Shown: positions 1,349-21,896, counted from the stretch's first letter. The stretch: 64,000 nt of DNA from an uncultured Flavobacteriaceae bacterium (GCA_963799365.1 CAWCWV010000017.1:199342-263341), one strand, 5' to 3'. The notes: generated from the sequence alone by a model not told the origin. Translations and numbers: made by a program.

Positions 1349-1360
1349 TGACGAATGTCA
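1349..1360 (-). promoter_or_regulatory. FNR/FixK/CRP-like palindromic box TGACGAATGTCA
   Basis: Intergenic between the pdxH stop (1378) and the ccoS start (1298). On the minus strand it lies 23 nt upstream of TATTTTTA (a -7-like element). Confidence 0.65.
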
Positions 1361-1377: not shown

Positions 1378-1968
1378 TTATTCAGGAAGAAAGAAAATTG
1401 TTTTTTCCCAATCGGGATACTCGCGTAAAACGTATGTAGTAAAAGTAATCGCATTTTCAGAAGATTCTTCAAACACTATCTTAACAGGTCTCACCATATA
1501 CCCACCCCATTGCGCTGGTTTTTCTATGAATACATTTGCAAACAAATCTTCAAAGTGAGCATAACGTTCCTCTAGTGCTGCTCTAGATGCTATGAGTTCG
1601 CTTTGCTGCGATGCCCAAGCACTCAATTGACTCCCGCGAGGGCGAGCTTCAAAATAAGCTTCAGATTGTGCTTTGCTTATTTTTTCTGCTGTTCCTAAAA
1701 TCGTGATACGTTTGTTTGCTTTTTCCCACGGAAATGAAAGGCAAACTTTATTGTTTTTGGCTATCGCTTTTCCTTTTGAACTGCTGTACTGTGTATAGAA
1801 GATAAAGCCTTCCCAAGTATATTGCTTTAAAAGAACCATTCTCGTTTTAGGAAAGCCATCTGTTTCTAAAGTCGTTAATGCGATTGCATTGACTTCAATT
1901 TCTGGAAATTTGTCTTTTACGACACAAAACCATTGATGAAAATGCTGTATAGGATTTGGATCATTCAT
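1378..1968 (-). CDS. pdxH: pyridoxamine 5'-phosphate oxidase
   Basis: Aligns from memory to E. coli PdxH (RMVLLK..GFIFYT, EARPRGSQLSAWASQQS, WGGY). The ORF track extends to 1989, but the likely start is MNDPNP at 1968, which overlaps the ccoI stop by 8 nt. Confidence 0.8.
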   Translation of the reverse strand: MNDPNPIQHFHQWFCVVKDKFPEIEVNAIALTTLETDGFPKTRMVLLKQYTWEGFIFYTQYSSSKGKAIAKNNKVCLSFPWEKANKRITILGTAEKISKAQSEAYFEARPRGSQLSAWASQQSELIASRAALEERYAHFEDLFANVFIEKPAQWGGYMVRPVKIVFEESSENAITFTTYVLREYPDWEKTIFFLPE

Positions 1969-4366
1969 CCTCCATAGTTGAACCTGCATACCATCGCACC
2001 ATGAGCGTTGTAAACACTACAATACTAATAGAACTCAATGGCATTAAAATTGCCGCCACCACAGGCTTTAAATGGCCTGTTACTGCAAATGCAAGCCCGA
2101 TAACGTTGTAACAAAGTGAAAAAAGAAAACTCCATTTAATGATTTGAACACCTCTTTTTGATGCATCTAGGATATTAGGAATCGCACTAAATACACTAGC
2201 ATCCAAAATCCCATCACAGGCGGGTGTAAAAACGTTTGTGTTTTCTGAAATAGCAATACCTACATTACTTTGTTTTAAAGCTCCAGCATCATTAAGACCG
2301 TCACCAACCATTAATACAGTCTTGCCTTTTTCCTGTAACCTTTTAATAAACTGTAGTTTGTGTTCTGGCTTCTGATTGAAATAAAATTCTGTTCCTTCAG
2401 GTAGTAACTGAGACAGGTTTTCCAGCTCGCCATCATTATCTCCAGAGAGTATGATAAGGCTGTAGTTTTTTGCTACCCTTCGCATTGTATCTGTAATCCC
2501 TATTCGGTACGTATTATTAAATACATAACGGCCTTTATAGGTTTCGTTACTACTAATGTGAATGGCAGTTTGTTGTTTATTATTTAACAACGGATTTTCT
2601 GAATCTGCGTCCGTGACAAAATTATAGGAGCCTATTTTAATTTTATTTTGGGCTGTCCTGGCTGAAATACCTTTCCCAATAATCTCCTCATAATCATCTA
2701 ACAAGTCGATATTATTTTTTTGAAGCAATTTATACAATGCCCTACTTAATGGATGATTTGAACCTCGTAATGAAGATGATAAGAGTGTTGCCTCTTCTTC
2801 GGAAAGTGTTATTCCTTCATAGTTTATATGGTTTTTATGCGTAGCGGTAAGCGTTCCCGTTTTGTCGAATACCAATGTGTCTATCTTTGCCATTTGTTCA
2901 ATAACCGAAGGCTCTTTTAAATAACATTTCCTCTTTCCGAAGAGTCGCAAAACATTACCTAGTGTAAAAGGAGCCGCAAGAGCAATGGCGCATGGACAGG
3001 CAATAATTAATACGGCTGTAAATACGTTGAAAGCCTTTGTTGGATCGTACACAAGCCAAAATAGTGTAGCCAAAAAGGCAATGCTTAACACTGCCACGGT
3101 AAATTGTTTACTAATTCCATCTGTGATCGATTGAAAAGCGCTTTTTTGGGTTTTACTGAAAATTTCGTTACTCCACAACTGGGTGAGGTAGCTTTGTGAA
3201 ACTGGTTTTAAAACTTCAATTTCCAGAACACCACCTTGCTGCTTTCCGCCGGCATATACACTATCTCCAGACAATTTTGATACGGGAACCGCTTCTCCCG
3301 TGACAAAACTATAATCAATAAGTGCATCTCCCTTTAATAGTACTGCATCTACAGGAATAAGTTCGTTATTACGAATTAGCAATCGGTCGCCCCTTTGTAT
3401 GAGATGGACTTCGGTTTGTACTTCGGAATAGGTTCCCTTCTCCTTTTTAACAAGCTGGGTTACTGCCATGGGAAAATAGGACTTGTAATCCCGCTCAAAC
3501 GAAAGATAGGCGTAGGTTTTCTGCTGAAAGAATTTACCGAGCAATAAAAAAAAGATTAAGCCCGTGAGGCTGTCGAAAAACCCTGAACCGGTATCAAAAA
3601 CGATATCCAGGGTACTCCTTATAAATAATACCGAAATACCCAATGCTATAGGCACATCTATATTTAATATCCGAGAACGCAGTCCTTTATAGGCAGAAAT
3701 AAAATAATCCTGTCCCGAATAAAAAACTACAGGAAGTGAAAACGCAAACATTAACCAGCGGAAAATATGTTTAAATTGGTCCAGCCAGAATTCGGTTTCT
3801 TCGAAGTATTCGGGAAAAGAAAGAAACATCACATTTCCGAAAGCAAAACCAGCAACTCCTACTTTATAGATAAGTGTTTTGTTATGGTTTCGTTTTTTGG
3901 GCTGGGCATCGTCTAGAGAAATGTAGGGTTCGTAGCCTATTTTTGACAATAAATGTACCAGCTGTTTTAAATCTACCTTTTCCGATGAAAAAGTAATCCG
4001 TACTGTTTTTTCAGGAAAGTTTACTTGCGACGTATATACGGCAGGGTTTAATTTATTTAAATTTTCAAGTACCCAAATACAAGAGCTGCAATGAATGGAT
4101 GGAATTAAAAAGGAAACCACTTGGGTACCACCTTCATCAAATTCTAATAATTTTTTTGCAATTTCTGGGTTCTCCAGAAAATCGAATTTGGCTTCGCTTG
4201 GTTTGGGAGACGTACCTGGCGTTTTTTCTAAATTGTAATAATGTCCAAGATCGTTGTCATTCAAAATATCATAGACGGTCTTGCAGCCAAAACAGCAGAA
4301 GTTTTTGTCCATGTGTAAAATTAACGCTTCTTCGCAGGGATCCCCGCAATGGTAGCATGATGTCAT
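1961..4366 (-). CDS. ccoI: heavy-metal (copper) translocating P1B-type ATPase, CcoI/FixI type
   Basis: 801 aa with an N-terminal CxxC-rich region (MTSCYHCGDPC, CCFGC), a CPC motif (ACPCAIALAAP), DKTGTLT and GDGLNDAGAL. It sits in a cco gene context. Confidence 0.85.
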   Translation of the reverse strand: MTSCYHCGDPCEEALILHMDKNFCCFGCKTVYDILNDNDLGHYYNLEKTPGTSPKPSEAKFDFLENPEIAKKLLEFDEGGTQVVSFLIPSIHCSSCIWVLENLNKLNPAVYTSQVNFPEKTVRITFSSEKVDLKQLVHLLSKIGYEPYISLDDAQPKKRNHNKTLIYKVGVAGFAFGNVMFLSFPEYFEETEFWLDQFKHIFRWLMFAFSLPVVFYSGQDYFISAYKGLRSRILNIDVPIALGISVLFIRSTLDIVFDTGSGFFDSLTGLIFFLLLGKFFQQKTYAYLSFERDYKSYFPMAVTQLVKKEKGTYSEVQTEVHLIQRGDRLLIRNNELIPVDAVLLKGDALIDYSFVTGEAVPVSKLSGDSVYAGGKQQGGVLEIEVLKPVSQSYLTQLWSNEIFSKTQKSAFQSITDGISKQFTVAVLSIAFLATLFWLVYDPTKAFNVFTAVLIIACPCAIALAAPFTLGNVLRLFGKRKCYLKEPSVIEQMAKIDTLVFDKTGTLTATHKNHINYEGITLSEEEATLLSSSLRGSNHPLSRALYKLLQKNNIDLLDDYEEIIGKGISARTAQNKIKIGSYNFVTDADSENPLLNNKQQTAIHISSNETYKGRYVFNNTYRIGITDTMRRVAKNYSLIILSGDNDGELENLSQLLPEGTEFYFNQKPEHKLQFIKRLQEKGKTVLMVGDGLNDAGALKQSNVGIAISENTNVFTPACDGILDASVFSAIPNILDASKRGVQIIKWSFLFSLCYNVIGLAFAVTGHLKPVVAAILMPLSSISIVVFTTLMVRWYAGSTMEDE

Positions 4367-4428: not shown

Positions 4429-4440
4429 TGATATTTGTCA
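4429..4440 (-). promoter_or_regulatory. FNR/FixK/CRP-like palindromic box TGATATTTGTCA
   Basis: 63 nt upstream of the ccoI start. On the minus strand it lies 23 nt upstream of AATCTTTG (a -7-like element). Confidence 0.6.
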
Positions 4441-4737: not shown

Positions 4738-5634
4738 TTAAATCGTTAGTTCAGGTAAATTTACATTATTTTTTCTATAGGATTTGTATTTGATATTTGG
4801 ATTTGAATGGACTTCAGCTGGTTTTCTTAAATCCAGGCTAAAATGGGTTCTTAGATTGTTATAGATATATACGGCTTGCTGCGTCATTTTCTGCGCTAAA
4901 TCCGTGTTTTTAATGGTTTGTTTAAGTCCGTACTCATATTTCAATGTTCTGTTAATTCGTTCTGCCACAGCATTTTCATATGGGTCGTATTGTTCTGTCA
5001 TACTCATTGTAATGCTGTTGTTTTCTGCAAATTTCGTGTACTTTGGATTGCAGTACTGGAACCCTCTGTCAGAATGATGGATCAATTTTTGCTTAGGATA
5101 TTTTCTGTTTTTAATGGCCATAGCGAGCGCATCTGTGCAAAGGGATGTTCTCATATGGTCATCGAGTTTATAGCCCATGATTTGCTTGGAATAGGCGTCT
5201 GTCACAAGTGCTAAATAATTGTGTCCATTTTCAGTTTTGATGTATGTAATATCGCTTACCCATAGCTGTTCTGGACGATTGGGGACTTGGTCTTTTACGA
5301 GGTTCTTATATTTTTTGTACATATGGTTTGAGTTTGTTGTGGTGATATAGTTTTTTGTTTTAGGAACCAGTAGCTTATTAAGTCTTAAGAAGCGATAGAA
5401 CTTATCTCTACCTATCTTAATATCAGCGTTTATGAAGTCTTGCTTTAGTTCAGAATGTAATTTTATTCCACCGGTTTTAGACCCTACTTTTTTACGGTAG
5501 TCCTTGACCATTTTTATTAGTTTTTGATGGTCTATCTGTTGTATTCGTTGGATTTTGAGCCTTTTGTAGTAGGCTTGTTTAGAGATTCCAAGGCACTGAT
5601 AGATCCATTTTCTTTTAAACGGTTTTTCTTTTTT
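4738..5634 (-). CDS. IS3 transposase OrfB (DDE integrase core), probably expressed as an OrfAB fusion by -1 frameshift
   Basis: rve-type motifs are present (WVSDITYI, HHSDRGFQY, YDPYENAVAERIN). The frame is open upstream of the first Met (5511) as far as the A_AAA_AAG heptamer, which reads CTTTTTT on the plus strand at 5628-5634. The -1 frame reads KKEKPFKRKWIYQCLGISKQAYYKRL. Confidence 0.85.
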   Translation of the reverse strand, partial: KKEKPFKRKWIYQCLGISKQAYYKRLKIQRIQQIDHQKLIKMVKDYRKKVGSKTGGIKLHSELKQDFINADIKIGRDKFYRFLRLNKLLVPKTKNYITTTNSNHMYKKYKNLVKDQVPNRPEQLWVSDITYIKTENGHNYLALVTDAYSKQIMGYKLDDHMRTSLCTDALAMAIKNRKYPKQKLIHHSDRGFQYCNPKYTKFAENNSITMSMTEQYDPYENAVAERINRTLKYEYGLKQTIKNTDLAQKMTQQAVYIYNNLRTHFSLDLRKPAEVHSNPNIKYKSYRKNNVNLPELTI

Positions 5635-5990
5635 CGTTCTATCTCTTTCGCGAGTGACTTGGGCAAGGACTTTTTTGACATATCGACGCCTGTAATGAGT
5701 TCCATGTCAGCTATAATATCTTGTTGAAAGTCCTTTACGAACTCAAGCTCTTCAATCTTTTCCTTAAGTTTTTTTATCTCGTCGTTTTTGCTCATACCTG
5801 TGTTTTGTTGTACTAAGGTACTGTATTTTCTCAACCAATAGGTAATGGTGGTTCTAGGGACATCATACTTTTTAGAAGCGAAGTTTGTCGATAGTTGTCC
5901 GTTTAGGATTTGGTCAACGACTAAAAGTTTGGTCTCTAAAGTTGCTTTTTGGTAGCTTTTTTTTAGCCAGTGTTCTTTTTTTGGTTTCAT
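5532..5990 (-). CDS. IS3 transposase OrfA (HTH)
   Basis: 152 aa with an N-terminal HTH (KYDVPRTTITYWLRKY) and a coiled-coil/leucine-zipper-like region. It contains CGA AAA AAG in the zero frame. Confidence 0.85.
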   Translation of the reverse strand: MKPKKEHWLKKSYQKATLETKLLVVDQILNGQLSTNFASKKYDVPRTTITYWLRKYSTLVQQNTGMSKNDEIKKLKEKIEELEFVKDFQQDIIADMELITGVDMSKKSLPKSLAKEIERKKKNRLKENGSISALESLNKPTTKGSKSNEYNR

Positions 5991-6041: not shown

Positions 6042-7181
6042 TCAATGTGCACGTGTCGTAGTAACACTGGCACCCTCTTTCAAAAAAGGAGTGATTTTGG
6101 ATAGTCCTTTATTAGTGACTGAGGGCATTGCTATGATTGGCTTGCCTCCTTTTGAAAGCGATGCACCACGAATAAAATCCATTTGTCCTCCAACCCCTGA
6201 ATATTGATAAGCTCCAATGGAATCTGCACACACCTGCCCTGTAAGATCAATTTCAATAGCACTATTAATAGCGGTTACTTTTGGGTTTTGTCTAATAATG
6301 GCTGTGTCATTGGTGTATCCCGCTTCTTTGAAGTGAAATATAGGATTGTCATCCACAAAATCATACAATTTCTGGGTTCCCATGGCAAAGCAGGTAACGA
6401 TTTTTCCTGTTTTTATTTCTTTATCTTCTCCCGTAATAATTCCGTTTTCAACAAGTGGTAAAATTCCATCGCTGAACATTTCGGTATGAATCCCTAATCG
6501 CTTGTGGTTTGTAAGATTACTTAGCACAGCATTCGGAATATTACCTATGCCCATTTGTAGTGTGGCTCCATCTTCAATAATACCAGCAATGTGTTTGCCA
6601 ATGGTTATCTCGGTTGGGGTTGGGTCGGTTAGGATAGAGGCATGGATTGGGGTATCTATTTCAACACCATAGGTGATCTTACTTACATGTATAATACCGT
6701 CTCCATGGGTTCTTGGCACCCTGGGGTTGATAAGTGCTATTACTTTTTTTGCTGTTTGAATTGCCGGCAAGGTGATGTCTACTGAAACCCCCAAAGAACA
6801 ATACCCATGAGGATCGGGTGGGGAAACCTGAATAAATGCAACATCCAGAGGCAGAATATTTCTTCTAAACAACCAATGAATTTCACTCAAAAATACTGGA
6901 ATATAATCTCCTCTATGCGAGGCAATCCCTTGCCGCACATTATTCCCAACAAAACAACTGCTTAGCTGAAACGCATTCGAGTAGGGTGCCCGGGTATATT
7001 TGGCATCGCCGTGGGTATGAATTTGGATAATTTCTACATTTTCTAATTCTTGATAGCGCTCACATAAAGAATCTATCAATAGATTTGGAGTCATGGCAGC
7101 TCCCTGAAAAAAGATTCGATCATTAGATTTAACTACTGAAACTGCCTCCTGGGGCGTAACTAATTGCAACGATTTTGACAT
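6042..7181 (-). pseudogene. acetyl-CoA hydrolase/transferase family protein (4-hydroxybutyrate CoA-transferase-like), N-terminal 379 codons, truncated by IS3
   Basis: Family-typical GIGNIPNAV and GGQMDF motifs are present. The stop codon TGA is supplied by the IS terminus. The remainder of the gene is at 4483..4629. Confidence 0.8.
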
Positions 7182-8849: not shown

Positions 8850-9287
8850 TTATGATAGTTTTTTTTGTTTGCTATGCTTTAAGAGGTCTGCGAGCATTTT
8901 AAAAATAATCCGCTTGGATTTCTTTACGTCTGCGTGGAAATCCATCATATCCATCATCAGTTTATAATGCGTATCCTTATAGTCCCTTAATTCGTTAGGA
9001 ATAGCTACCTCATCCATTAAAAATTGCAAGTTATTTGCATGATTTTTTAATCTCTTTAGTAAGAGAACTACCCTATTGTTATAGGTATGTAAGGTAGCTC
9101 CTATTGTAGATACCTGTTCGTAAGGTTTTCCATAAATGAGTTCTAATGTTCGGTTTGCTACAATTTCAGAAAGAAATCGTAATTCATCTTTTAAGAATAG
9201 CAATTCAGCTATAGCAATTACAACATCTTCATGTAATCCACTGGTATCAAGCCACTGAATGTATTTTATATGTGTTTTGTTTTTCAT
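8850..9287 (-). CDS. hypothetical protein, predicted all-helical and His-rich
   Basis: 145-aa ORF with no recognisable family. It lies downstream of a box-containing promoter at 9465-9507. Confidence 0.45.
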   Translation of the reverse strand: MKNKTHIKYIQWLDTSGLHEDVVIAIAELLFLKDELRFLSEIVANRTLELIYGKPYEQVSTIGATLHTYNNRVVLLLKRLKNHANNLQFLMDEVAIPNELRDYKDTHYKLMMDMMDFHADVKKSKRIIFKMLADLLKHSKQKKLS

Positions 9288-9495: not shown

Positions 9496-9507
9496 TGACA
9501 TTTGTCA
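9496..9507 (-). promoter_or_regulatory. FNR/FixK/CRP-like palindromic box TGACATTTGTCA
   Basis: On the minus strand it lies 23 nt upstream of TATTTTTA (plus coordinates 9465-9472). This is about 170 nt upstream of the start at 9287. Confidence 0.55.
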
Positions 9508-9903: not shown

Positions 9904-11274
9904 TTAAACTAAAACCTCTGTTACCGTATCTAATTTGGGAATGGTAACTTTCCAACTATACGTATCCTGAATCTTTACCCGAAGTACATCCTGAGCAGTA
10001 GGCTCTCCGTGAATTAAAAAGATATTTTCTGGAATATTTTTAAGATCCTGCAACCAATTTATAATTCCAGCCTGATCTGCGTGTGCCGAAAGACTTTCAA
10101 TATGTTCTACCTTGGCATTAACTGGATAATATTTTCCGAAAAATTTTAGTTCGTGTGCACCTTCTAATAAATGTCGCCCACGAGTACCTTCAGCCTGGTA
10201 TCCCACCATTAAAATAGTTGTATTTGGTTCATCAATTAGCTGTTTTAGGTAGGTTAGTATCCTGCCGCCAGTAACCATTCCACTCCCTGCAATCACTATT
10301 TTGGGTCTTGGATCGTCTATGGTTTCCCAGGTTTCTTTATAGGATTTTATTATATGCATCCTGTTTTTCATTGCGATAAATTCAGCTGGTGGAATTTTAT
10401 GCCAACTGGCGAATCCCTCAAAAATTCCTAGCACATTGGTACCCATAGGACTGTCTATAAAAATTGGAATATTGGGAATACGTCCCTCCTTATATAGTTT
10501 CCAAAGCAGCCACATTAATGTTTGTAATCGTTCTACTGCAAATGAGGGGATAAGTAATGCCCCGCGGTTATGTACTGTAGAATTAATGAGTTCAATAAGT
10601 TTTTCTGAAACACTTGTTGTTGGATGCAATTTGTTTCCATAGGTACTCTCCAGAAACAGATAATCTGCCTGTTGCGGCTTTTCTGGTGGAAATAAAAGTA
10701 AATCCTCTTGTCTTCCAATATCCCCCGAAAAAACAAAGATTTTGCCAAATAATTGTAATTCAATAAACGTGGCTCCTATGATATGTCCATTATATTTAAA
10801 GCGGTATTTGATATGCTCTGAAAGAGAGTGCCAAGTATCTTTTTCAGAAGGTGTAAACATATTGATAGCTTGTTCAGCATCATATATCGTATAAAATGGT
10901 TGTGCAGGATGGTGCTTGCTATAGTTTTCTTCATTAGCCCTTTCTGCATCTTCTTCATTAATCTTGGCACTATCCAATAGAATTATTCTGGTAATTTCCA
11001 ATGTAGGCGCTGTAGCAATAATTTTTCCATTAAATCCCTGCTTTACCAATCTGGGTAAATATCCGGTGTGGTCTAAATGCCCATGAGTGAGCAACACCGT
11101 ATTGATTGATGAAACATTAAATGGAAAATCTTCCCAGTTCTGCTCCCGAAGCTCTTTTAATCCTTGAAACATTCCACAGTCCACAAGGATATTCTGTTCG
11201 GGTGTTTCTAGCAAAAATTTAGAGCCTGTTACAGTTCGGGAAGCACCTAAAAAATGAATTTTTATTGTTCTCAT
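9904..11274 (-). CDS. MBL-fold metallo-hydrolase of the beta-CASP (RNase J/CPSF-like) type
   Basis: HGHLDHTG motif, with later D/H motifs and a C-terminal RNA-specificity-like region (SAHADQ). The ORF track starts at 11310, but the likely start is MRTIKIHFLGA at 11274. Confidence 0.75.
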   Translation of the reverse strand: MRTIKIHFLGASRTVTGSKFLLETPEQNILVDCGMFQGLKELREQNWEDFPFNVSSINTVLLTHGHLDHTGYLPRLVKQGFNGKIIATAPTLEITRIILLDSAKINEEDAERANEENYSKHHPAQPFYTIYDAEQAINMFTPSEKDTWHSLSEHIKYRFKYNGHIIGATFIELQLFGKIFVFSGDIGRQEDLLLFPPEKPQQADYLFLESTYGNKLHPTTSVSEKLIELINSTVHNRGALLIPSFAVERLQTLMWLLWKLYKEGRIPNIPIFIDSPMGTNVLGIFEGFASWHKIPPAEFIAMKNRMHIIKSYKETWETIDDPRPKIVIAGSGMVTGGRILTYLKQLIDEPNTTILMVGYQAEGTRGRHLLEGAHELKFFGKYYPVNAKVEHIESLSAHADQAGIINWLQDLKNIPENIFLIHGEPTAQDVLRVKIQDTYSWKVTIPKLDTVTEVLV

Positions 11275-11281
11275 ATGATTT

Positions 11282-12112
11282 CTAATTACAGAGCATTGAA
11301 ATTTCAGCAAGTATCTTGTTTTTTCTTGTTTCAGAAACCCCCAGGTGATCTAAATAAAAGGTATCATCTGCCAATTGTCTGCACAACACAATTTCTCTAC
11401 TTAATAAAAATTGTTTTTCTCTATTGGTCATCAATGTTGACACGGTGATAGGATAAAGCCCCAATCTGTCAATACGATCTTTTAGTCCATTATCTTTGGG
11501 ATAATCCCAGCTTAACAGATAAAGACCCACACATTTCCCGTACATCAACGCATTCGATGTAAATCTGGTATTAGTTACTACCCAGCCTTCATTAGGACAT
11601 TGGTTCGGATTATCAAATTGCGCTACAATATCCTGGTATCGGGAATTTATATATAAAGGGATTTTCACATTACAGGTAGTTGTTTTTTCGCTGTGAAATT
11701 TACATTCAGCAACGATGTGCTTTCCATTTTTTTTGGCGATAACATCTACCTCGTGAGAAACACATTTTCCTTGTAATATGGCACCAATCGAAATAGAATA
11801 TCCCGAATATTCTAACAAGGCTCCAATAAATCTTTCAAATGGAAATCCGGTTGGCCCAAGCTCATAAATAGCTTTCTTAAGTTTATATTTAGAAGCGTAA
11901 ATTGACTTACTCTTTTTCAATAAGGCAAACGCCCGATTGTAAATCTCCTTGGTAGAAATCCCCTGGTACAATTCATCTCGTACCACATTGATAATTGTAT
12001 CGACCGTGAGTTCATCTGCGCCACTTCTATACAAACTATTTCGCAGCTTCGTTATGGAGAAATCTGCTTTTTCTCCTGAAGATTTTATCACTTGAAATTT
12101 TTCAGTTTTCAT
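11282..12112 (-). CDS. ATP-cone domain protein fused to a PD-(D/E)xK (Mrr-like) restriction-endonuclease-fold domain
   Basis: The N-terminus (VIKSSGEKADFSITKLRNSLYRSG...EIYNRAF) resembles an ATP-cone. The central region (ERFIGALLE...HEVDVIAKKNGKHIVAECKF) matches a D...ExK nuclease core. Confidence 0.6.
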   Translation of the reverse strand: MKTEKFQVIKSSGEKADFSITKLRNSLYRSGADELTVDTIINVVRDELYQGISTKEIYNRAFALLKKSKSIYASKYKLKKAIYELGPTGFPFERFIGALLEYSGYSISIGAILQGKCVSHEVDVIAKKNGKHIVAECKFHSEKTTTCNVKIPLYINSRYQDIVAQFDNPNQCPNEGWVVTNTRFTSNALMYGKCVGLYLLSWDYPKDNGLKDRIDRLGLYPITVSTLMTNREKQFLLSREIVLCRQLADDTFYLDHLGVSETRKNKILAEISMLCN

Positions 12113-12120
12113 AGCGATAT

Positions 12121-12973
12121 TTAGTTTCGTAAATCATGCAATGCCAACACGGGTATGGTCGCATGAAAGCCCAATTCTTTCACCATGGGTTTGGAAAAGA
12201 TAGACCCAAAGAATGCGTGTTTCTTGTTTATAAAAGCAATCATTTCACTATTTCTGCTCTGTGTAAAGATGTTAAGTGCAGTTTGCACGTTTGAGCCATC
12301 GAGAAAATGAAAGGTATATTCCAAACCCTCAAAACACTCTTCCAATAGTGCTTTTCGTTCTTCTTGTTCTTCAGAGAGCTTGTTTTTTTTTTGAAACGTG
12401 TACTATTCGAATAGGGGCATTGGTAATTTTCGAAATTTCGCTAAGATGGTTAAGTTCCCTACTCTTGAAATGTGTTTTAAAACTTGTAGGGAATACAATT
12501 TCGTTTGGATTTTTGTAGCTTATAGTCCCTGGAATTGCTAAAACGGGGCAGGCACGAATTTTTTCCATTATATCTATGGTATTAGTACCAAAAATGATAT
12601 TCCTATTATCAGTTTCACCACGTGAGCCCATCACCACCAATTCGATATCATTTTTATCAACAGTATTTTTCATAACGTCCAACAATGGACCAAATTCACT
12701 TACAAAATGATAGGTATGACCAGGAGGATCATTCCTAGATTTTAACTCGCTTTTTGTTTCTTCCATCTTTTTTTCAGAAACCATTTTTAGCGCTTCAAAT
12801 ATGCTGCTTCCAGTTTCTGGAATCAGCATATTATCTGTAGCATATCCTGGTGAATAATAGGAGTTGAAGATATAAAAATCCACTTTCTTTTTTTTAAACA
12901 ATTCATTGGCATAAGCTATCGCATTGTAGGCATTTTCTGAAAAATCTGTGGGAATTAAAATTTTCTTTTTCAT
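12121..12973 (-). pseudogene. tandem-domain universal stress protein, reading frame broken in an A10 run
   Basis: ORFs 12371..13000 and 12121..12345 together match the layout of the neighbouring ~280-aa USPs (N-terminal ILIPTDFSENAYNAI, C-terminal IPVLALH). The frames join if the T10 run on the plus strand at 12383-12392 were 9 nt long. Confidence 0.7.
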
Positions 12974-13030
12974 CTCGATACATTTTAAGGTTCTTGACAT
13001 AAATGTATGTACTTAACAAAAAAGTAACTA

Positions 13031-13042
13031 TGATAAATGTCA
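13031..13042 (-). promoter_or_regulatory. FNR/FixK/CRP-like palindromic box TGATAAATGTCA
   Basis: 58 nt upstream of the MKKKILIPTDFS start (12973). It lies 23 nt upstream of TACATTTA on the minus strand. Confidence 0.6.
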
Positions 13043-13180: not shown

Positions 13181-14029
13181 TTAAGAACGTTCTAAGTTTT
13201 GAAGAACCAGAAAGGGTATTTTAATTTCCAATCCTACTTTTTCTATCGTGGAGCGGTATAGTATATGTTCAAGATACGAGTGGCGCTGATTTACCATGAC
13301 TAACATATCGAAAGCGGTATCCTGTAGTATTTTATTTATACCCTGTGTAATATCTTTTCCAGGTGCGTTTATCTGAGAAACCAAATGCTCTTCGAAATAA
13401 CTGCTCGCAAAAGCTCTGTTATCTTTTTGCCTGTGAGACAGTTCTTTTGCCTCGGAAATATGAAGAAAATGAACCCTTGTTACAAACCGAGATGCTAACG
13501 CACTTACCAACTTTAACTCCCGGCGTTTAAAAGGAAGCATATAGTCTGAAGGAAACAACATATTTTGAAGTGGGTAGCCATGATAGCTTACCGGAACAGC
13601 AAGAACAGGACATTTTACATATTTAATTACCTGTAAGGTTTGACTCCCAAATGTGACCTCCTCACGGTTGGTTTTACCTTTTGTTCCCATGACCACAATA
13701 GCTGCATTGTGTTTATCTACTAAGTGGTTTACCTCATCTACCAAACTCCCAAAAGAAGCCATAATTTTGAAAGTATGCTTTGGATTTGGGGAAATAGCTA
13801 ACACCTCGGCAATGACTTTTTGAAGGGATCGCTCTGTTGCTACTTCCAGTTTATCCTTAAACTCTTCAAAGAATTCACGATCCATCTCCATAGTATTTTC
13901 ATAAACGTCATCTGCAAATGCATTCATGATTAGAAACTCACTGTTCTCGTATTTAAAAAGCTCCACAGCATACCGAATTGCATTCAATGCTGTTTCAGAA
14001 AAATCGGTTGGAATAATTATCTTTCTCAT
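13181..14029 (-). CDS. universal stress protein (two USP domains)
   Basis: IIIPTDFSETALNAIRYA, VVMGTKG, CPVLAVP and C-terminal IPFLVL motifs. Confidence 0.85.
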   Translation of the reverse strand: MRKIIIPTDFSETALNAIRYAVELFKYENSEFLIMNAFADDVYENTMEMDREFFEEFKDKLEVATERSLQKVIAEVLAISPNPKHTFKIMASFGSLVDEVNHLVDKHNAAIVVMGTKGKTNREEVTFGSQTLQVIKYVKCPVLAVPVSYHGYPLQNMLFPSDYMLPFKRRELKLVSALASRFVTRVHFLHISEAKELSHRQKDNRAFASSYFEEHLVSQINAPGKDITQGINKILQDTAFDMLVMVNQRHSYLEHILYRSTIEKVGLEIKIPFLVLQNLERS

Positions 14030-14083: not shown

Positions 14084-14095
14084 TGATAAATATCA
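14084..14095 (-). promoter_or_regulatory. FNR/FixK/CRP-like palindromic box TGATAAATATCA
   Basis: 55 nt upstream of the start at 14029. It lies 23 nt upstream of TAGCTTTG on the minus strand. Confidence 0.65.
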
Positions 14096-14138: not shown

Positions 14139-14975
14139 TTATTCGTGTAATACTAAAAATGGAATATGAATATGATAGCTTATTTGTGCTACCTGAGGTC
14201 TGAACAAAATACGCTGAAAGAAGTTAAGGTTTTTTGCAATCATTGCCACCATATCAATTTGCATAGTGTTTACAAAAGATTGCAATGCATTTTCCAGGTT
14301 AGGATTTTCAATCACGTGAAAACTATGGGGAATGCCACGTAAGCGCTCCTTTAAAATCTGCCGATTATTGCTCTGAAAATTATCCAAAGGTTTTTGTGTC
14401 TGGGCAACCCTTAATACTCTTATCGAAGAGTTTGAAACCCTTGATATATTTTGTAAGGTGTCTATCACTTTATACTTATAGCTCATATTGAAATCTGTAG
14501 GGAAGCCAATGGAAAGGGTTTTTTTAAAAGACGCTTTCTCAGGTATTACTAAAATAGAACACTTTACGCGGGTTATAACTGCACCCGCTCTACTCCCCAA
14601 AGTCATTTCTTTTAAACCTGAAGCTCCTTTGGTTCCCATAACCATAAAGTCGATACTATTTTCTAGAATAAAGTTTCGGATACCGTCTATAAAAGGCGCT
14701 TGGATAATAGCGTGTTTAAATGTATGCTGGGGGTTTGAATATTGTGTATTGACTTTTCGCATCCAGTCATCCATATCGGAATTTAAATGATCCGGTACTT
14801 CTTTTTTTATGGAAAGACCTGCGTAATGTAAGTTATCATCACTGCCTTTGTGAAATGAAATGTCGATATGTAAAAAATGAAATGTGGTTTTTTCATTATT
14901 AAAAAAACGCAATGCATACGCTGTTGCATTCCAGGCATTCTGAGAAAAATCGGTCGGGATCAAAAATTGCTGCAT
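14139..14975 (-). CDS. universal stress protein (two USP domains)
   Basis: FLIPTDFSQNAWNATAYA, MVMGTKGASG and C-terminal IPFLVLHE motifs. Confidence 0.85.
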   Translation of the reverse strand: MQQFLIPTDFSQNAWNATAYALRFFNNEKTTFHFLHIDISFHKGSDDNLHYAGLSIKKEVPDHLNSDMDDWMRKVNTQYSNPQHTFKHAIIQAPFIDGIRNFILENSIDFMVMGTKGASGLKEMTLGSRAGAVITRVKCSILVIPEKASFKKTLSIGFPTDFNMSYKYKVIDTLQNISRVSNSSIRVLRVAQTQKPLDNFQSNNRQILKERLRGIPHSFHVIENPNLENALQSFVNTMQIDMVAMIAKNLNFFQRILFRPQVAQISYHIHIPFLVLHE

Positions 14976-15024
14976 AGTACTTTTTCTATAGTCAAAAGTA
15001 TCAATGCCTCTTAAAATGGAATAT

Positions 15025-15036
15025 GATAAAAATCAG
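15025..15036 (-). promoter_or_regulatory. FNR/FixK/CRP-like palindromic box TGATAAAAATCA
   Basis: 50 nt upstream of the start at 14975. It lies 23 nt upstream of TACTTTTG. It also sits only 11 nt downstream of the regulator gene's stop codon. Confidence 0.65.
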
Positions 15037-15046
15037 TTCTACAAAA

Positions 15047-16099
15047 TTATTCTATATTTTCTAAGGAATTAAGTTCAAGGATTTTAATATTTCTACCTTC
15101 AATCGCTATAAGTCCTTTTTTCTTAAATTCTGAAAGCGTACGTATTAAACTTTCTGTAGCGATCCCAGCAACACTTGCCAAATCACTTCGGGAAATTTTA
15201 ATAGCTTCATCTGGTTTTTTATTGAGAACACGGGCAAACTGCAAGATTGTCTGAGCTGTTTTTTTCCTTACAGAGCTATACGCCATTTGTAATAACTGCT
15301 CTTTTATTTCGGTGATATTATCGGTAAGAACATTCATTAATTCTAGGGAAACATTCTGATTTTTTCCAAGAATATTTTTTAACTCACTTTTCAAAATTCC
15401 TGATACCGTTACGTCTTCAATGGCTATAGCAGTTTCTTCATATCGTATGTTATGGTTAAATGATGTAAATCCTAAAAAACTGTCTGTTTGGTATAGATTG
15501 GTGATTAACTCTTTGCCATCATCTTCCGTTCGGGAACACTTTACAATCCCTTTTGTGATAAGATAAACATAATTTGAGTGAGCACCCCTTCTGTAAATAA
15601 CTTCCCCTTTGGCAAAAGTTCTCATCGTTCCCGTATCGTCAAATAAGTTTTTGAGTTCATTGAGGCTTCTTATATCCTCTTCAGGATCTAATTTTTTTTT
15701 TGAGGTGGTTTCCAGTGCTTTTGAAAGAATTTCGGCTTTGGCCAATCTACTTTCTATAGCGCTCATTAATTCTTCCTCTTCAAATGGTTTGGTAAGGTAG
15801 TCGTCTGCCCCTAAATCCATTCCTTTTCGAATTTCTTTATGTTCTGTTCTTGCAGATAAAAAAATAAATGGGATATGTGTAGTGGAAGGCTCTAATGAAA
15901 CTGCCTCTAAAACTCCATAACCATCTACCTCGGGCATCATGATATCGCAAACAATAATATCAGGGAGGTGTTTCTTGGCTACTTCAATCCCAATTTTGCC
16001 ATTTGGGGCTGTAAACACTCTGTAATTAGCAAGTTCTAACAACTCTGCCGTATTTTCACGCAATGCAAGATCGTCTTCAATTAAAAGGATGGTTTTCAT
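15047..16099 (-). CDS. hybrid response regulator: CheY-like receiver fused to a Crp/Fnr-type cNMP-binding domain and C-terminal HTH
   Basis: Receiver: KTILLIEDD...PDIIVCDIMMPEVDG...LSA...KP. Effector domain: beta-roll (GEVIYRRGAHSNYVYLITKGIVK) plus HTH (ISRSDLASVAGIATESLIRTLSEFKKKGLI) with the E-x3-R recognition pattern seen in FNR/FixK/CRP. There is no FNR-type Cys cluster. The likely start is MKTILL at 16099; the ORF track gives 16168. Confidence 0.8.
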   Translation of the reverse strand: MKTILLIEDDLALRENTAELLELANYRVFTAPNGKIGIEVAKKHLPDIIVCDIMMPEVDGYGVLEAVSLEPSTTHIPFIFLSARTEHKEIRKGMDLGADDYLTKPFEEEELMSAIESRLAKAEILSKALETTSKKKLDPEEDIRSLNELKNLFDDTGTMRTFAKGEVIYRRGAHSNYVYLITKGIVKCSRTEDDGKELITNLYQTDSFLGFTSFNHNIRYEETAIAIEDVTVSGILKSELKNILGKNQNVSLELMNVLTDNITEIKEQLLQMAYSSVRKKTAQTILQFARVLNKKPDEAIKISRSDLASVAGIATESLIRTLSEFKKKGLIAIEGRNIKILELNSLENIE

Positions 16100-16210
16100 C
16101 TGTTGCAGTTTTTGAGAAATTGGAATATTCGGGGCTGCTTTTCTGACACAGCACACCAACGCATACATCTTCAGCTCAATGGCAAATTGCCTAGGGGTAC
16201 TTTATCATAT

Positions 16211-17719
16211 TTAATCAATAAGCAAGGGTAGTGTTACTGTAAATGTAGTGCCCACATTATGTTTACTTGTAAAGATAATCGTACCGCCTAGATTTTCCAA
16301 ATGTGTTTTCACAATGTTTAACCCTATTCCTGTTCCCTGGTTTAATAGCGCATTTTCCGCTCTAAAATACCGGTTAAATATATATTTTTGTTCGTTTTTC
16401 GGAATCCCAATCCCTTCGTCTTTTATGGTTAATACCAATACGCTATCTTCTTCCTTTGCTGTTAAATATATAGTTGAATTTTCGGAAGAATACTTAATCG
16501 CGTTATTCACCAGATTCGTCAAAATAAGTTCCAGTATCTTCTCGTCAAAATTGATAAAAATGGCATCTATATTTTCAGGGTATTCAATATGTTGTCCGTC
16601 TTTTAGTAACATATTTGCATCGTAGATGACTTCGTTAACTATTTTGCTCAACGGAAAATTGGTAAACATATATTTAAATTTTCCGCTCTCTAAGCGTTCA
16701 ATAGATAAAAAGTCGTTAATTATATTGTTGAGATATTTTACTTTTCCCTGTATCGTTTTTAAATGTTTTTCCCGTTTATCCTGCTGTTCCTCTTTCTCAT
16801 ATTTACCTGCCAAGGTAGCAGAAGTTAATATGCCACTTAAAGGGGTTTTAAACTCGTGAGAGACCAAGGAGAGAAATTTTGTCTTTAATTCTCCTAGTTC
16901 TTTTTCTTTTTTTAATGCTTCTTCCAGTTGCCTGGTACGCTCGGCAACTGTATGCTCGAGTTTGAGCGTATATTGTTCCTGCTCTGTTATATCTAAAATA
17001 ATAGCCACCAATGTATCATCATCAGCAGAAGATGATTTTTGTAAATGTATTTCTACAGGATAGGTAGAGCCATCTTTACGTTTATGGAAGGTGTTAAATT
17101 TTAATTTATGGACAGCACCTTCAATCAGTGGTTTTAGCTTTTCTATAAATTCTTCTTTGCTGAAATCAGGTTTAATATCTACAGGCGTCATGGCTCTAAG
17201 CTCCTCCAGAGTGTATCCTATATTGGATAAAGCTCCCTTATTTACATCAATAAACAATAAAGTGTGAGCATCAAAAATAAAGATCTCATTAAGCGACTCA
17301 TTAAATATTTTGGCCCAGTGTTTTAATTCTTGTTCGGCTTTTTTTCTAACAGTAATATCTATAACCAAGGCCATTACATAATCATTGTCATAAATTGAAA
17401 AAGGGTTAAGCCCTGCTTCTACTGGAAACTGATATCCATCTTTTCGTATTCCGAACAAATCCCTACCATGTCCCATCTGCCGCTTGCCACTATCTTTCAA
17501 AAAAACACTTACGTGTTCGTGGTGATCCTTGTGATATTTTTTGGGTATCAAAATATCCAGATGCTGCCCAATGAGCTCATCTTCGGCATAACCAAACAAA
17601 GTATTTGCAGCTTTATTTGTAGCTACTATGGTCTGCGCTTTATTTACAATAACAATCCCTTCAGAAACAGCTTCTGAAAGAATTTTAAAGACATTGTCCC
17701 CTTTTTGAAAAACTTCCAT
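16211..17719 (-). CDS. PAS-PAS sensor histidine kinase (FixL-like architecture, cytoplasmic)
   Basis: Two PAS domains, then HisKA (LSLVSHEFKTPL) and HATPase_c (NAIKY, DEGIGI, GTGIGL). No TM segments. The PAS1 segment FGYAEDELIGQHLDILIPKKYHKDHHEHV...GRDLFGIRKDGYQFPVE aligns from memory with the FixL heme-PAS region. Confidence 0.8.
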   Translation of the reverse strand: MEVFQKGDNVFKILSEAVSEGIVIVNKAQTIVATNKAANTLFGYAEDELIGQHLDILIPKKYHKDHHEHVSVFLKDSGKRQMGHGRDLFGIRKDGYQFPVEAGLNPFSIYDNDYVMALVIDITVRKKAEQELKHWAKIFNESLNEIFIFDAHTLLFIDVNKGALSNIGYTLEELRAMTPVDIKPDFSKEEFIEKLKPLIEGAVHKLKFNTFHKRKDGSTYPVEIHLQKSSSADDDTLVAIILDITEQEQYTLKLEHTVAERTRQLEEALKKEKELGELKTKFLSLVSHEFKTPLSGILTSATLAGKYEKEEQQDKREKHLKTIQGKVKYLNNIINDFLSIERLESGKFKYMFTNFPLSKIVNEVIYDANMLLKDGQHIEYPENIDAIFINFDEKILELILTNLVNNAIKYSSENSTIYLTAKEEDSVLVLTIKDEGIGIPKNEQKYIFNRYFRAENALLNQGTGIGLNIVKTHLENLGGTIIFTSKHNVGTTFTVTLPLLID

Positions 17720-17755: not shown

Positions 17756-17767
17756 TGATAAATATCA
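17756..17767. promoter_or_regulatory. FNR/FixK/CRP-like palindromic box TGATAAATATCA shared by divergent promoters
   Basis: On the plus strand it lies 23 nt upstream of TATTTTTA (17791-17798), facing the start at 17820. On the minus strand it lies 24 nt upstream of TACTTTTG (17724-17731), facing the kinase start at 17719. Confidence 0.65.
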
Positions 17768-17819: not shown

Positions 17820-18227
17820 ATGAGTATCATACATACCTCCGAAATTGTTTTTTACCAGAAGTTAGGCGAGTTATTTTATGCAGTAGCAGCGTCAGACAAG
17901 GTTGTTCATGAAGCAGAATATAAAGTTTTAACCACTCTGGTAGAGAAAGAATGGAAACAAATGGATGCGTATCAGGACCAATTTGGAGCTGATGCTGCAT
18001 ACCAGATATCAATTGTATTTGAATGGTTTGATTATGAACGTATGGATGCTAATGATTGTTTTGAGAGTTTCAGTGAATACTATAAGGAGCATAAAAAATT
18101 ATTCACTGGGCAAAGGAAAAAACTTGTTCTAAGTACGGTTAAACAAATTGCGAACGCCTTCGCAGGTAGTAATAAAAGTGAACTTATGATGAGTGCCAAA
18201 CTTCAATTACTTTTTAATAAAAATTAA
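17820..18227 (+). CDS. TerB-like (tellurite-resistance TerB family) protein
   Basis: 135 aa. The helical pattern FYQKLGELFYAVAASDKVVHEAEYKVL resembles TerB-family proteins annotated in flavobacteria (from memory). Confidence 0.45.
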   Translation: MSIIHTSEIVFYQKLGELFYAVAASDKVVHEAEYKVLTTLVEKEWKQMDAYQDQFGADAAYQISIVFEWFDYERMDANDCFESFSEYYKEHKKLFTGQRKKLVLSTVKQIANAFAGSNKSELMMSAKLQLLFNKN

Positions 18228-20141: not shown

Positions 20142-20597
20142 ATGATTAAAAAATTAGACGATAAAGAAAAAATGCTCTTACTTAGTTCAAACTACATAGG
20201 TAGTTTAGGCTATATATTTCAGAACAAATCTTTTGTGGTGCCCATTACCTATTTCTACAACCAAGAAAAAAATAACATCATCTGTTATTCAGCCAACGGC
20301 CATAAAATTAATGCATTGAGGAAAAACAATTCGGTATCTCTTTCTGTAACCGATATCGACTCCGTCAACGACTGGAAATCGGTTTTGGTTCAAGGTACCT
20401 ATAAAGAAGTGGAGGGCAGTACCGCCAGGGCCTTGTTACATCAGTTTTCATTAGGGGTAAAGGATCTTATTCTGCGAAAAGAACTTCGTGACTTAGATTT
20501 TATTAGTCAGTTTTCCAGCAAGGTGTATAAAGATGATATACCAATAGTATTCACCATAGAAATTAATGAGATAACTGGAAGGATGCGAACGTTTTAG
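20142..20597 (+). CDS. pyridoxamine 5'-phosphate oxidase family (FMN-binding split-barrel) protein
   Basis: 151 aa. The pattern NYIGSLGYIFQNKSFVVPITYFY...NSVSLSV...WKSVLVQGTYKEV is typical of general-stress PPOX-family proteins. Confidence 0.6.
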   Translation: MIKKLDDKEKMLLLSSNYIGSLGYIFQNKSFVVPITYFYNQEKNNIICYSANGHKINALRKNNSVSLSVTDIDSVNDWKSVLVQGTYKEVEGSTARALLHQFSLGVKDLILRKELRDLDFISQFSSKVYKDDIPIVFTIEINEITGRMRTF

Positions 20598-20684: not shown

Positions 20685-21518
20685 TTACATTTTAAAGGTC
20701 ATAATAGGTAAATCACTATGATTCACAATCCCCTCGCCTACTTTTTCTGAAAAGAAATGAGCCAAGCCGCGTCTGCCATGAGTAGGAATCACGACCAAAT
20801 CTGCTTCCACCTCGTTGCTGAAGCTATAAATCCCGTGTTCTAATCTATAATCGCAATAATAGGCTGTATTGTCATAGACATCAGTATTATCCACGCCACT
20901 TTGCATCATAAATGTAAAGGCACGTTCCTGCATTTGTTGATTGCTTAGAAATTTTTCTGGTGTATTGATAAAAACCACTTGAAACTCTGCACCAATTTTT
21001 TCAAAGAAATTCCAGGCATTTTTAAAGGGTTCTACATAATCCATATTAAAGTCACACGCAAAGACAACCTTATCCATTTTAAAATTATTCATTCTATTTT
21101 TTACCACAAGTACAGGTATTTCTGAAGTACGAACTACTTTTTCGGTATTGGAGCCAACAAACACTTCTTTGAGACCACTGGCCCCGTGAGAACCCATCAC
21201 AATCAAATCGGCTTTAAAATCTTTGGCTACATTATTGATCTCATGAAATTCTTTGTAGTTCTGAACAGTCGTTTCAACTGTTATTCCTTTTAGATAGTCT
21301 TTGTCTAAAAAGTCACTAAAACGTTTTTCGGCCAGCTTCATATAATAAATGGCTTCAAACATCTCTTGAGATTCATCTCTCGTTAGTACAGCTTCAGAAA
21401 GCCCCATCATATGTAAGGCAATTAATGAAGCATTGTTTTTTCTAGCTATGGTGGCTGCCACTTCTAAAGCATAATCTGAATGTTCAGAAAAATCGATGGG
21501 TATAAGTATCTTTTTCAT
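20685..21518 (-). CDS. universal stress protein (two USP domains)
   Basis: ILIPIDFSEHSDYALEVA, IVMGSHGASG, IPVLVV and C-terminal LPIMTFK motifs. Confidence 0.85.
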   Translation of the reverse strand: MKKILIPIDFSEHSDYALEVAATIARKNNASLIALHMMGLSEAVLTRDESQEMFEAIYYMKLAEKRFSDFLDKDYLKGITVETTVQNYKEFHEINNVAKDFKADLIVMGSHGASGLKEVFVGSNTEKVVRTSEIPVLVVKNRMNNFKMDKVVFACDFNMDYVEPFKNAWNFFEKIGAEFQVVFINTPEKFLSNQQMQERAFTFMMQSGVDNTDVYDNTAYYCDYRLEHGIYSFSNEVEADLVVIPTHGRRGLAHFFSEKVGEGIVNHSDLPIMTFKM

Positions 21519-21830
21519 TTAAGAGGATATATTTTGTTTTGTAAATTTTGCTTTCCGCTTTTTTAATTGCTTTTCAATGTCACTAATGGTCTCTTTAACT
21601 GCCATTTCAAAGTTTTTTTCATTGGAAGTTGCAAAAATCTTCGGTCCTGGAAGACTCACTTCCATTTCGCAGATATGACCATTTTCGCTTGGGTCGTTTT
21701 CTATTTTGAAGAATACATCAATCCGTACGATCCAATCATATTTCTTTTCAATTTTTTGAAGCTTTTTGGTAACATACGCAGACATACTTTCGCTAGTCTT
21801 CATTTTTACATATTGAATTTGTATCGTCAT
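21519..21830 (-). CDS. hpf: ribosome hibernation promoting factor / RaiA family
   Basis: 103 aa with the short HPF pattern (YVTKKLQKIEKKY...EVSLPGPKIFATSNEKNFEMAV...KQLKKRK). Its stop abuts the start of the downstream USP gene. Confidence 0.75.
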   Translation of the reverse strand: MTIQIQYVKMKTSESMSAYVTKKLQKIEKKYDWIVRIDVFFKIENDPSENGHICEMEVSLPGPKIFATSNEKNFEMAVKETISDIEKQLKKRKAKFTKQNISS

Positions 21831-21884: not shown

Positions 21885-21896
21885 TGATAAATATCA
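21885..21896 (-). promoter_or_regulatory. FNR/FixK/CRP-like palindromic box TGATAAATATCA
   Basis: 55 nt upstream of the hpf start. It lies 23 nt upstream of TACTTTTG on the minus strand. Confidence 0.65.

Follow-up and report, generated by a model that had tools for sequence, protein, structure and literature searches.

A histidine kinase with a heme-PAS-like domain and its REC-Crp hybrid response regulator are associated with conserved TGAY-N4-RTCA boxes in Flavobacteriaceae

A stretch of 64,000 nucleotides from an uncultured Flavobacteriaceae bacterium, here termed the window (G+C content ~36%) and attributed to a marine flavobacterium, encodes a soluble sensor histidine kinase and a hybrid response regulator in which a receiver (REC) domain is fused to a Crp/Fnr-type DNA binding module. 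These two proteins probably form a two-component system that responds to oxygen or redox and activates genes for respiration at low oxygen and for growth arrest through boxes that conform to TGAY-N4-RTCA. The system apparently is uncharacterized. The pair was examined in the window and in 80 Flavobacteriaceae loci that each extend 10 kb to either side of the two genes (20 kb per locus), and counts of boxes refer to the window and these loci together (1.6 Mb). Protein domains were assigned with Pfam and curated families with NCBIfam, and structures were modeled with AlphaFold2 and compared with PDB entries using Foldseek. The closest named relative is Rasiella sp. SM2506, whose regulator and kinase are 89% and 86% identical, respectively, to those in the window.

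By both its domains and its residues, the regulator is a two-component response regulator and a transcription factor of the Crp/Fnr superfamily. Profile searches matched Response_reg (5e-27), cNMP_binding (PF00027; 5e-16) and HTH_Crp_2 (PF13545; 3e-12) to residues 27-139, 183-269 and 305-371, respectively, of an open reading frame (ORF) that can be read as 373 amino acids (aa) from position 16168. This is the domain order proposed in an original prediction that was made from the nucleotide sequence alone. All 120 of the closest homologues are 347-353 aa in length, possess the same three domains and begin with MKTILLIEDD. The start was placed accordingly at M24 (16099), which gives the protein of 350 aa that had been predicted. 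The 23 additional codons are a spurious N-terminal extension attributable to the 111 nt that separate the kinase and regulator genes (16100-16210); this spacer is ~20 nt in most orthologous loci. The active-site and phospho-acceptor residues of the receiver are intact, as D9, D10, D52, S82 and K104 are invariant in orthologues from the flavobacterial clade. The AlphaFold2 model places strands at residues 158-236, a helix at 252-291 and the helix-turn-helix (HTH) at 304-327, and was matched by Foldseek to CRP-family structures with E-values of 1e-13 to 5e-16. No solved structure in the PDB that spans the receiver and the Crp part together was retrieved.

The predicted recognition helix, ATESLIRTL, is present, and its residues E316 and R320 are invariant across relatives of 35-89% identity. 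When compared by BLASTP with the E. coli CRP sequence, the segment T-E-S-L-I-R was placed on R180-E-T-V-G-R185. The Glu/Arg pair that reads TGA (E181/R185 in CRP, E209/R213 in FNR) thus is retained, whereas R180 of CRP is not, as also is the case in FNR. The protein contains only two cysteines, C51 and C188, which excludes an FNR-type [4Fe-4S] cluster and agrees with the absence of the FNR cysteine cluster noted previously. The position of the cAMP-binding residue Arg-82 of CRP is occupied by Glu (ETA vs RSA), so that binding of a cyclic nucleoside monophosphate (cNMP) is unlikely, and the GE motif that includes E72 in CRP also is missing. Among solved structures, the C-terminal 210 residues are closest to GlxR (5e-16) and MtbCRP (6e-13), ahead of FNR (3e-10), FixK2 (1e-9) and CRP (1e-8). 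The regulator scored below the NCBIfam cut-offs for FixK (NF050806; 65.5 bits vs 300) and CRP (NF008732; 62 bits vs 266), and the kinase scored far below that for the FixL equivalog (NF041777, sens_FixL_Rhizob; 98.5 bits vs 850) and therefore is not a FixL orthologue. No full-length NCBIfam family was found for either protein. As both proteins miss the curated cut-offs and the Crp module is nearest to GlxR and MtbCRP, the resemblance to the rhizobial cascade is functional and not orthologous: the suggestion that FixJ and FixK are merged in one polypeptide holds as an analogy, but not as a statement of descent.

The kinase comprises two PAS domains (both PAS_9), HisKA (residues 279-346) and HATPase_c (392-499), with H288 as the H-box histidine. 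The protein has no hydrophobic segment, the Kyte-Doolittle maximum over 19 residues being 1.19, and hence corresponds to the soluble PAS-PAS-HisKA-HATPase kinase that had been described upstream of the regulator. PAS1 is present in every orthologous kinase, whereas PAS2 is variable and is missing from roughly half of them; since PAS1 always is kept while PAS2 comes and goes, PAS1 is viewed as the conserved sensor. By every computable criterion, PAS1 falls in the FixL/DosP/FG214 group of heme-PAS domains. When the single PAS1 sequence was searched against all PDB sequences, the top 14 matches all were heme-PAS domains (3e-14 to 2e-10), including RmFixL (1d06; 3.4e-14), E. coli DosP/EcDOS, BjFixL and entry 10jx, the heme-binding PAS domain of FG214. 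The next match, at 2e-4, was the first non-heme PAS domain. The HMMER alignment with RmFixL reproduces the similarity to FixL that the original prediction had described. A profile built from 55 orthologous PAS1 domains similarly returned heme-PAS proteins as the 14 best distinct sequences (7.5e-21 to 2.5e-14), with DosP at 7.5e-21, RmFixL at 1.4e-20, FG214 (10jx) at 1.9e-16 and BjFixL at ~3e-15. The next class comprised LOV domains (YtvA; 2.9e-9). A LOV or flavin domain was considered for PAS1 and rejected, as the LOV matches are weaker by at least five orders of magnitude than those to heme-PAS domains and the kinase is devoid of cysteine.

The residues that surround heme in characterized relatives largely are conserved in PAS1. 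In the HMMER alignments, H66 occupies the column of the proximal histidine (BjFixL H200, RmFixL H194, EcDOS H77, FG214 H156) and is invariant in the 55 orthologues and in a second alignment of 25. Residue R80 also is invariant, and M82 and R86 are either invariant or conserved in at least 90% of the orthologues. R86 lies within a G-x-G-R motif and aligns with the distal FG-loop arginine of FixL and DosP (BjFixL R220, EcDOS R97), whereas H69 and M82 align with H159 and M172 of FG214, respectively. In FG214, H156 has been assigned as the proximal ligand, H175 as the distal ligand and M172 as an alternative distal ligand (bioRxiv 10.64898/2026.03.15.711900). The AlphaFold2 model of PAS1 (residues 1-136) has a predicted local distance difference test score (pLDDT) of 83.5 and a predicted template modeling score (pTM) of 0.78, and positions H66 on a helix formed by residues 60-76. 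The top 23 Foldseek matches to this model all are FixL, EcDOS/DosP or FG214 structures, with query-normalized TM-scores of 0.69-0.82. Structure prediction therefore is in accord with the heme pocket suggested initially, and the combined sequence comparisons indicate that PAS1 probably binds heme.

The association between the two proteins is highly conserved. The kinase gene is located immediately upstream of the regulator gene in 78 of the 80 loci, usually at a distance of ~20 nt. In a scan of one genome per species, REC-Crp relatives were detected in at least 548 genomes, with Aquimarina, Dokdonia, Maribacter, Arenibacter, Aequorivita and Kordia among the carriers. A protein library clustered at 50% identity yielded 1687 representatives at E ≤ 1e-30, the best 150 of which almost all matched over the full length (~340-360 aa), and distant members were noted in Gillisia and Chitinophagales. 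Thus, the survey of phylogenetic distribution recommended at the outset reveals that the REC-Crp fusion is not rare, but is a common and large family that is widespread in Bacteroidota. The source annotation of these proteins is generic ("response regulator" or "CRP-like cAMP-binding protein"). No paper was found on a REC-Crp/cNMP regulator or on a flavobacterial FixL-like, Usp or hypoxia system; the combination of domains may be included in Galperin's surveys of response regulators. In a variant from the representative library (P0240), Ser-Ala replaces the Cys-Asp phospho-acceptor motif, making it a pseudo-receiver form of the fusion.

Two distant loci are instructive. In a metagenomic locus of 49% G+C (L165, 1-7029), the regulator is 37% identical to that in the window and the kinase of 706 aa carries a textbook FixL-type heme-PAS motif, ILMPSPDREQHDRYL...ARIIGKGREV. 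Here the kinase and regulator genes are divergent from ccoNO-ccoP-ccoG and a TGATTCTCATCA box is situated in the common spacer. In the second locus (L164), which is near an NDH-2 gene, the regulator is 40% identical and the adjacent kinase keeps an H-x2-H-x12-M pattern. No enrichment of boxes was evident for the L164 pair, which suggests that more remote clades may use a different motif.

In the window, TGAYNNNNRTCA occurs nine times compared to 3.7 expected. Eight of the nine matches are intergenic, and all eight are clustered within 1-22 kb (Table 1). Across the window and the 80 loci, TGAY-N4-RTCA was matched 482 times in intergenic DNA versus 92 times in coding DNA, which corresponds to a ~32-fold difference in density, and the starts of the boxes peak sharply 60-69 nt before start codons. 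Aligned in gene orientation, 355 boxes gave the extended motif aAAC-TGAT-attT-aTCA-T, with a TAnnTTTG sequence located 35 nt downstream of the start of the box that matches the Bacteroidota -7 promoter element. With TAnnTTTG assigned this role, the box is centered at about -41 bp relative to the predicted start of transcription. A site near -41 is the class II activator position used by FNR and CRP. The full FNR consensus, TTGAT-N4-ATCAA, was tried with one mismatch allowed and was discarded as it was not enriched (4 vs 6.2 expected); the 5' flank of the actual motif is C or A, not T.

Genes for universal stress proteins (Usp) dominate those preceded by boxes (174 genes in 79 loci). The second most conserved is orf135, which has a box in 61 loci and matched no Pfam or NCBIfam family. 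The kinase gene (55), genes for the ribosome hibernation-promoting factor HPF (20), a DUF3298-like protein (16), an M50-like protease (14), thioredoxin (12), Hsp20 (11), acylphosphatase (9) and P-type ATPases (5), and ccoS (2) follow. The dominant output in the vicinity of the pair hence is a stress and hibernation set of Usp, HPF, Hsp20 and thioredoxin, rather than a Fix regulon. The link to the cbb3 oxidase that had been drawn from the rhizobial cascade nonetheless is supported. Boxes precede both ccoS-ccoN and ccoI in the window. Of the 17 closest metagenomic relatives of ccoS-ccoN, 15 carry a box located 60-65 nt ahead of the start codon; overall, 34 of 67 relatives have a box. The chance expectation upstream of ccoS, estimated from the degeneracy of the pattern, is ~0.01 matches per 200 nt. 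The L165 locus described above also combines the regulator, a box and cco genes.

The box at 17756-17767, which is present as TGATAAATATCA as originally reported, lies between the kinase operon and the divergent orf135 gene and had been regarded as a sign of autoregulation. Its flanks, C at the 5' end and T at the 3' end, and its distance of 64 nt fit orf135 on the plus strand, whereas for the kinase gene the orientation is reversed and the distance is 48 nt. Of 76 loci, 51 have orf135 in divergent orientation to the kinase operon, and 49 of these possess the box, compared to 13 of the 25 loci in which orf135 is not divergent; in ~4 of these 13 the box is at a close position. Orientation, distance and co-occurrence therefore identify the box primarily as an orf135 site, and simple autoregulation was downgraded: it is possible for the kinase operon, judging from the sequence, but is not conserved. 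In loci with a box ~48 nt before the kinase start (L015-L033 and others), a TAnnTTTG element follows the box by 36-37 nt and precedes the ATG by ~5 nt. This spacing predicts a leaderless kinase-regulator mRNA, and one box could serve both directions. The geometry differs in loci in which the box is ~36 nt before the kinase start.

The identity of the protein that acts at the boxes was considered from the content of the neighborhoods. In 78 of the 80 neighborhoods, no Crp-like protein other than the regulator was detected, a phmmer search having detected just two additional Crp-like proteins in the 80 loci, and no other Crp/Fnr regulator was identified with Pfam among the 28 ORFs of the window that were scanned. 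As the sole local Crp-like protein with an invariant E-x3-R helix, the regulator is the best candidate for the box binding factor.

In the circuit that we propose, the cytoplasmic kinase would sense through heme held in its N-terminal PAS domain, with H66 as the proximal ligand and M82 and R86 on the distal side. Scarcity of oxygen or reduction of the heme would trigger autophosphorylation at H288, and the phosphate then would be transferred to D52 of the regulator. Pairing of phosphorylated receivers may substitute for the Fe-S cluster of FNR and the cAMP of CRP, bringing two Crp modules together such that the helices with E316 and R320 could read the palindrome TGAY-N4-RTCA. Binding would lead to class II activation, rather than repression, of the Usp, HPF, Hsp20, thioredoxin, orf135, ccoI and ccoS-ccoN genes.

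Several observations weigh against this circuit, and three other explanations draw on them. The boxes instead may be bound by a stand-alone Fnr- or FixK-like protein encoded elsewhere that drives the Usp, HPF and cbb3 genes, with REC-Crp using a different or overlapping site or acting as a competitor. TGA-N6-TCA cores are generic targets common to FNR, FixK and CRP, Bacteroidota genomes usually encode several Crp/Fnr paralogues, and the survey covers 10 kb on either side of the pair, so that such a protein could be located beyond it. Moreover, 12 of the 25 kinase operons that lack a divergent orf135 are boxless, and the usual argument from autoregulation that links a regulator to its motif thereby falls away. 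The ccoS boxes of the metagenomic relatives also are located on contigs whose genomes may or may not encode the regulator. Against the circuit itself, two REC-Crp members (L161 and L163) are orphans in unrelated contexts with no adjacent kinase. However, the neighborhoods in which a second Crp-like protein is almost always missing are the most box-dense regions, REC-Crp keeps the invariant residue pair that reads TGA, and the distant L165 member is adjacent to cco genes with which it shares a box-containing spacer. A separate box binding factor is considered unlikely.

The two remaining explanations concern the signal that the system perceives. PAS1 may not be an oxygen sensor, either because it contains no heme or because a six-coordinate heme, ligated by H66 and M82 in a manner reminiscent of Met-95 in EcDOS or the His/Met pair of FG214, reports redox, nitric oxide or carbon monoxide. 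A heme-PAS-like sequence is not proof of heme loading, and the propionate-binding arginine of FixL (BjFixL R206, RmFixL R200) is replaced by V72. The conserved M82 coincides exactly with the proposed alternative distal ligand of FG214, the predicted regulon has the character of a general stress and hibernation response, and the PAS1 model is less confident at residues 61-90, which form the F-helix and FG loop. Set against these points, every close relative that has been characterized experimentally binds heme through the aligned histidine, the distal arginine used for oxygen binding in FixL and DosP is conserved as R86, and a high-affinity cbb3 oxidase is among the targets. A PAS1 domain that does not sense oxygen is judged improbable to about the same degree as a separate box binding factor. 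A more doubtful proposal is that the regulator principally is controlled by a ligand in the β-roll pocket on which DNA binding would depend, as it does in CRP, CooA and NtcA, with the receiver serving only to tune or localize the protein. The pocket segment FLGFTSF..Y.E is largely invariant in close orthologues (F208, G210, F211, T212, S213, Y220 and E222 invariant, L209 nearly so), implying that a small ligand could also matter; GlxR and MtbCRP, the nearest solved relatives of the Crp module, bind cAMP; and P0240 without its phospho-acceptor and the orphan members without a kinase also are compatible with a ligand switch. The AlphaFold2 model of the full regulator, which is of moderate quality (pLDDT 74.7, pTM 0.41), is silent on communication between the domains. 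Nevertheless, Glu is present at the position of CRP Arg-82, the pocket motif is not kept across the wider REC-Crp family, no active-site residue of the receiver varies within the flavobacterial clade and the kinase almost always is adjacent. The pocket possibly provides a second input, in which case the regulator would function as a two-signal AND gate.

The phosphorylation-driven circuit proposed here can be compared with known oxygen-responsive systems. It resembles FixL-FixJ-FixK of Sinorhizobium meliloti and Bradyrhizobium diazoefficiens, and FixLJ-FixK of Caulobacter, in the heme-PAS kinase with aligned proximal histidine and distal arginine, in a Crp/Fnr-type output on a TGA-N6-TCA-type palindrome, and in the cbb3 oxidase and FixI/CcoI ATPase targets. 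It differs in that a single REC-Crp protein replaces both FixJ, which consists of a receiver and a LuxR-type HTH, and FixK, so that there is no transcriptional relay step. In addition, PAS1 combines the loss of the FixL propionate arginine with a conserved FG-loop methionine, and the neighboring regulon mostly consists of Usp and HPF genes, not fix and nif genes, in a non-diazotrophic host. Mycobacterial DosR, under hypoxia, induces many Usp, α-crystallin/Hsp20, a ribosome-hibernation-type factor and a P-type ATPase. The box-preceded set resembles these targets, and signaling directly from a heme sensor kinase to a single regulator also is reminiscent of DosS/DosT-DosR (DevSR). In the latter, however, the heme is bound by a GAF and not a PAS domain, DosR has a NarL/LuxR-type output and recognizes another DNA motif, and outside the generic kinase and receiver domains no homology is detectable. 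FNR of E. coli and Aliivibrio fischeri is an oxygen-responsive class II activator that is activated by dimerization and acts near -41.5 on TGAT-N4-ATCA. The regulator shares with it the Crp/Fnr fold, the E-x3-R helix without R180 of CRP and the placement of the box near -41, but has no N-terminal cysteine cluster, so that the receiver would supply the dimerization signal, and the flank of the box is asymmetric with C-TGAT instead of T-TGAT. FG214 of Fimbriimonas ginsengisoli (PDB 10jx) has an H-x2-H-x12-M-G pattern in common with PAS1, yet is a one-component HTH-PAS factor with bis-His ligation via H175, where the kinase has Gly. E. coli DosP, which heads the PAS1 profile search, has a cyclic di-GMP phosphodiesterase output in place of the histidine kinase.

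The features of the window are compiled in Table 1. No gene lies at the canonical distance from the perfect box at 9496-9507; on the minus strand, the nearest ORF (8850-9287, 145 aa) has no family match and starts 220 nt away. This box may belong to a gene with a long leader, to a small gene that escaped annotation or to an RNA. Between it and the Usp cluster, at 9904-12112 on the minus strand, an ORF for a β-CASP/RMMBL metallo-β-lactamase (RNase J-like) overlaps that for an ATP-cone protein, and RNase J-like and ATP-cone genes recur near the regulator in ~20 of 80 loci. The box-rich region also encodes two PNPOx-fold proteins: pdxH and, at 20142-20597 on the plus strand, a protein of 151 aa that weakly is NimA/PPOX-like and whose homologues are preceded by a box in three loci. 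An insertion sequence (IS)-like pair, consisting of an rve integrase (4738-5511) and an HTH_psq protein (5532-5990), occupies 4738-5990 on the minus strand between ccoI and an acetyl-CoA hydrolase/transferase ORF (6042-7181). IS insertion may have truncated the latter ORF, as its C-terminal Pfam domain ends at position 113 of 154.

Table 1. Kinase-regulator pair, box-preceded genes, cbb3 genes and boxes in the window
Feature	Position	Strand	Remarks
Hybrid response regulator, 350 aa	15047-16099	minus	REC, long α5/linker helix, cNMP-fold β-roll, dimerization helix, HTH_Crp
Soluble sensor histidine kinase, 502 aa	16211-17719	minus	PAS1-PAS2-HisKA-HATPase_c
PAS1	kinase residues ~1-125		FixL/DosP/FG214-type, probably heme-binding
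PAS2	kinase residues ~130-250		Missing in roughly half of orthologues
ccoN, 5' part	1-1047	minus	Runs off the window; identified from translation and tblastn relatives
ccoS	1050-1298	minus	NCBIfam ccoS; cbb3 oxidase operon
pdxH	1378-1989	minus	After ccoI, overlapping its end; bona fide, PNPOx fold
ccoI/FixI-type P-type ATPase	1961-4366	minus	Pfam ATPase-cat_bd, HMA and E1-E2; NCBIfam
Usp1, universal stress protein	12371-13000	minus	Box target
Usp2, universal stress protein	13181-14029	minus	Box target
Usp3, tandem-domain universal stress protein	14139-14975	minus	Pfam; box target
orf135	17820-18227	plus	Conserved box-preceded gene, function unassigned
HPF (21519-21830) then Usp4 (20685-21518)	20685-21830	minus	HPF: TIGR00741 above cut-off; box target
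Box TGACGAATGTCA	1349-1360		62 nt before ccoS start; position conserved in metagenomic relatives
Box, TGACAAATATCA on gene strand	4429-4440		74 nt before ccoI start
Box TGACATTTGTCA, perfect	9496-9507		No gene at canonical distance
Box TGATAAATGTCA	13031-13042		42 nt before listed ATG of Usp1, 69 nt if start is M10
Box TGATAAATATCA	14084-14095		66 nt before Usp2 start
Box TGATAAAAATCA	15024-15035		60 nt before Usp3 start
Box TGATAAATATCA	17756-17767		Divergent promoters: 64 nt before orf135 start codon, 48 nt before kinase start codon
Box TGATAAATATCA	21885-21896		66 nt before start of HPF-Usp4 operon

It is poorly understood how the aerobic Flavobacteriaceae of marine waters, a major group in the degradation of algal particles, perceive and survive low oxygen inside particles and biofilms. 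The pair described here offers a compact circuit for this purpose that consists of a soluble, putatively heme-bearing kinase, a single hybrid regulator and a single box of 12 bp. Its predicted regulon ties respiration, in the form of the cbb3 oxidase and its copper-delivery ATPase, to growth arrest mediated by Usp, HPF and Hsp20. If correct, the circuit would illustrate how phosphorylation, and not a ligand or an Fe-S cluster, can drive a protein with the Crp/Fnr fold, and how the three-protein FixL-FixJ-FixK relay can be reduced to two proteins. The geometry of box and promoter may be used for the construction of reporters in Bacteroidota, in which few regulated promoters have been characterized. 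More tentatively, REC-Crp proteins may represent an unrecognized class of response regulator in Bacteroidota in which dimerization of the receiver replaces the cofactor or ligand switch, and which together with heme-PAS kinases could act as the master low-oxygen and dormancy switch of the phylum. The class then would govern the cbb3 oxidase, universal stress proteins, ribosome hibernation and Hsp20, and would be a convergent counterpart of both FixLJ-FixK and DosRST.

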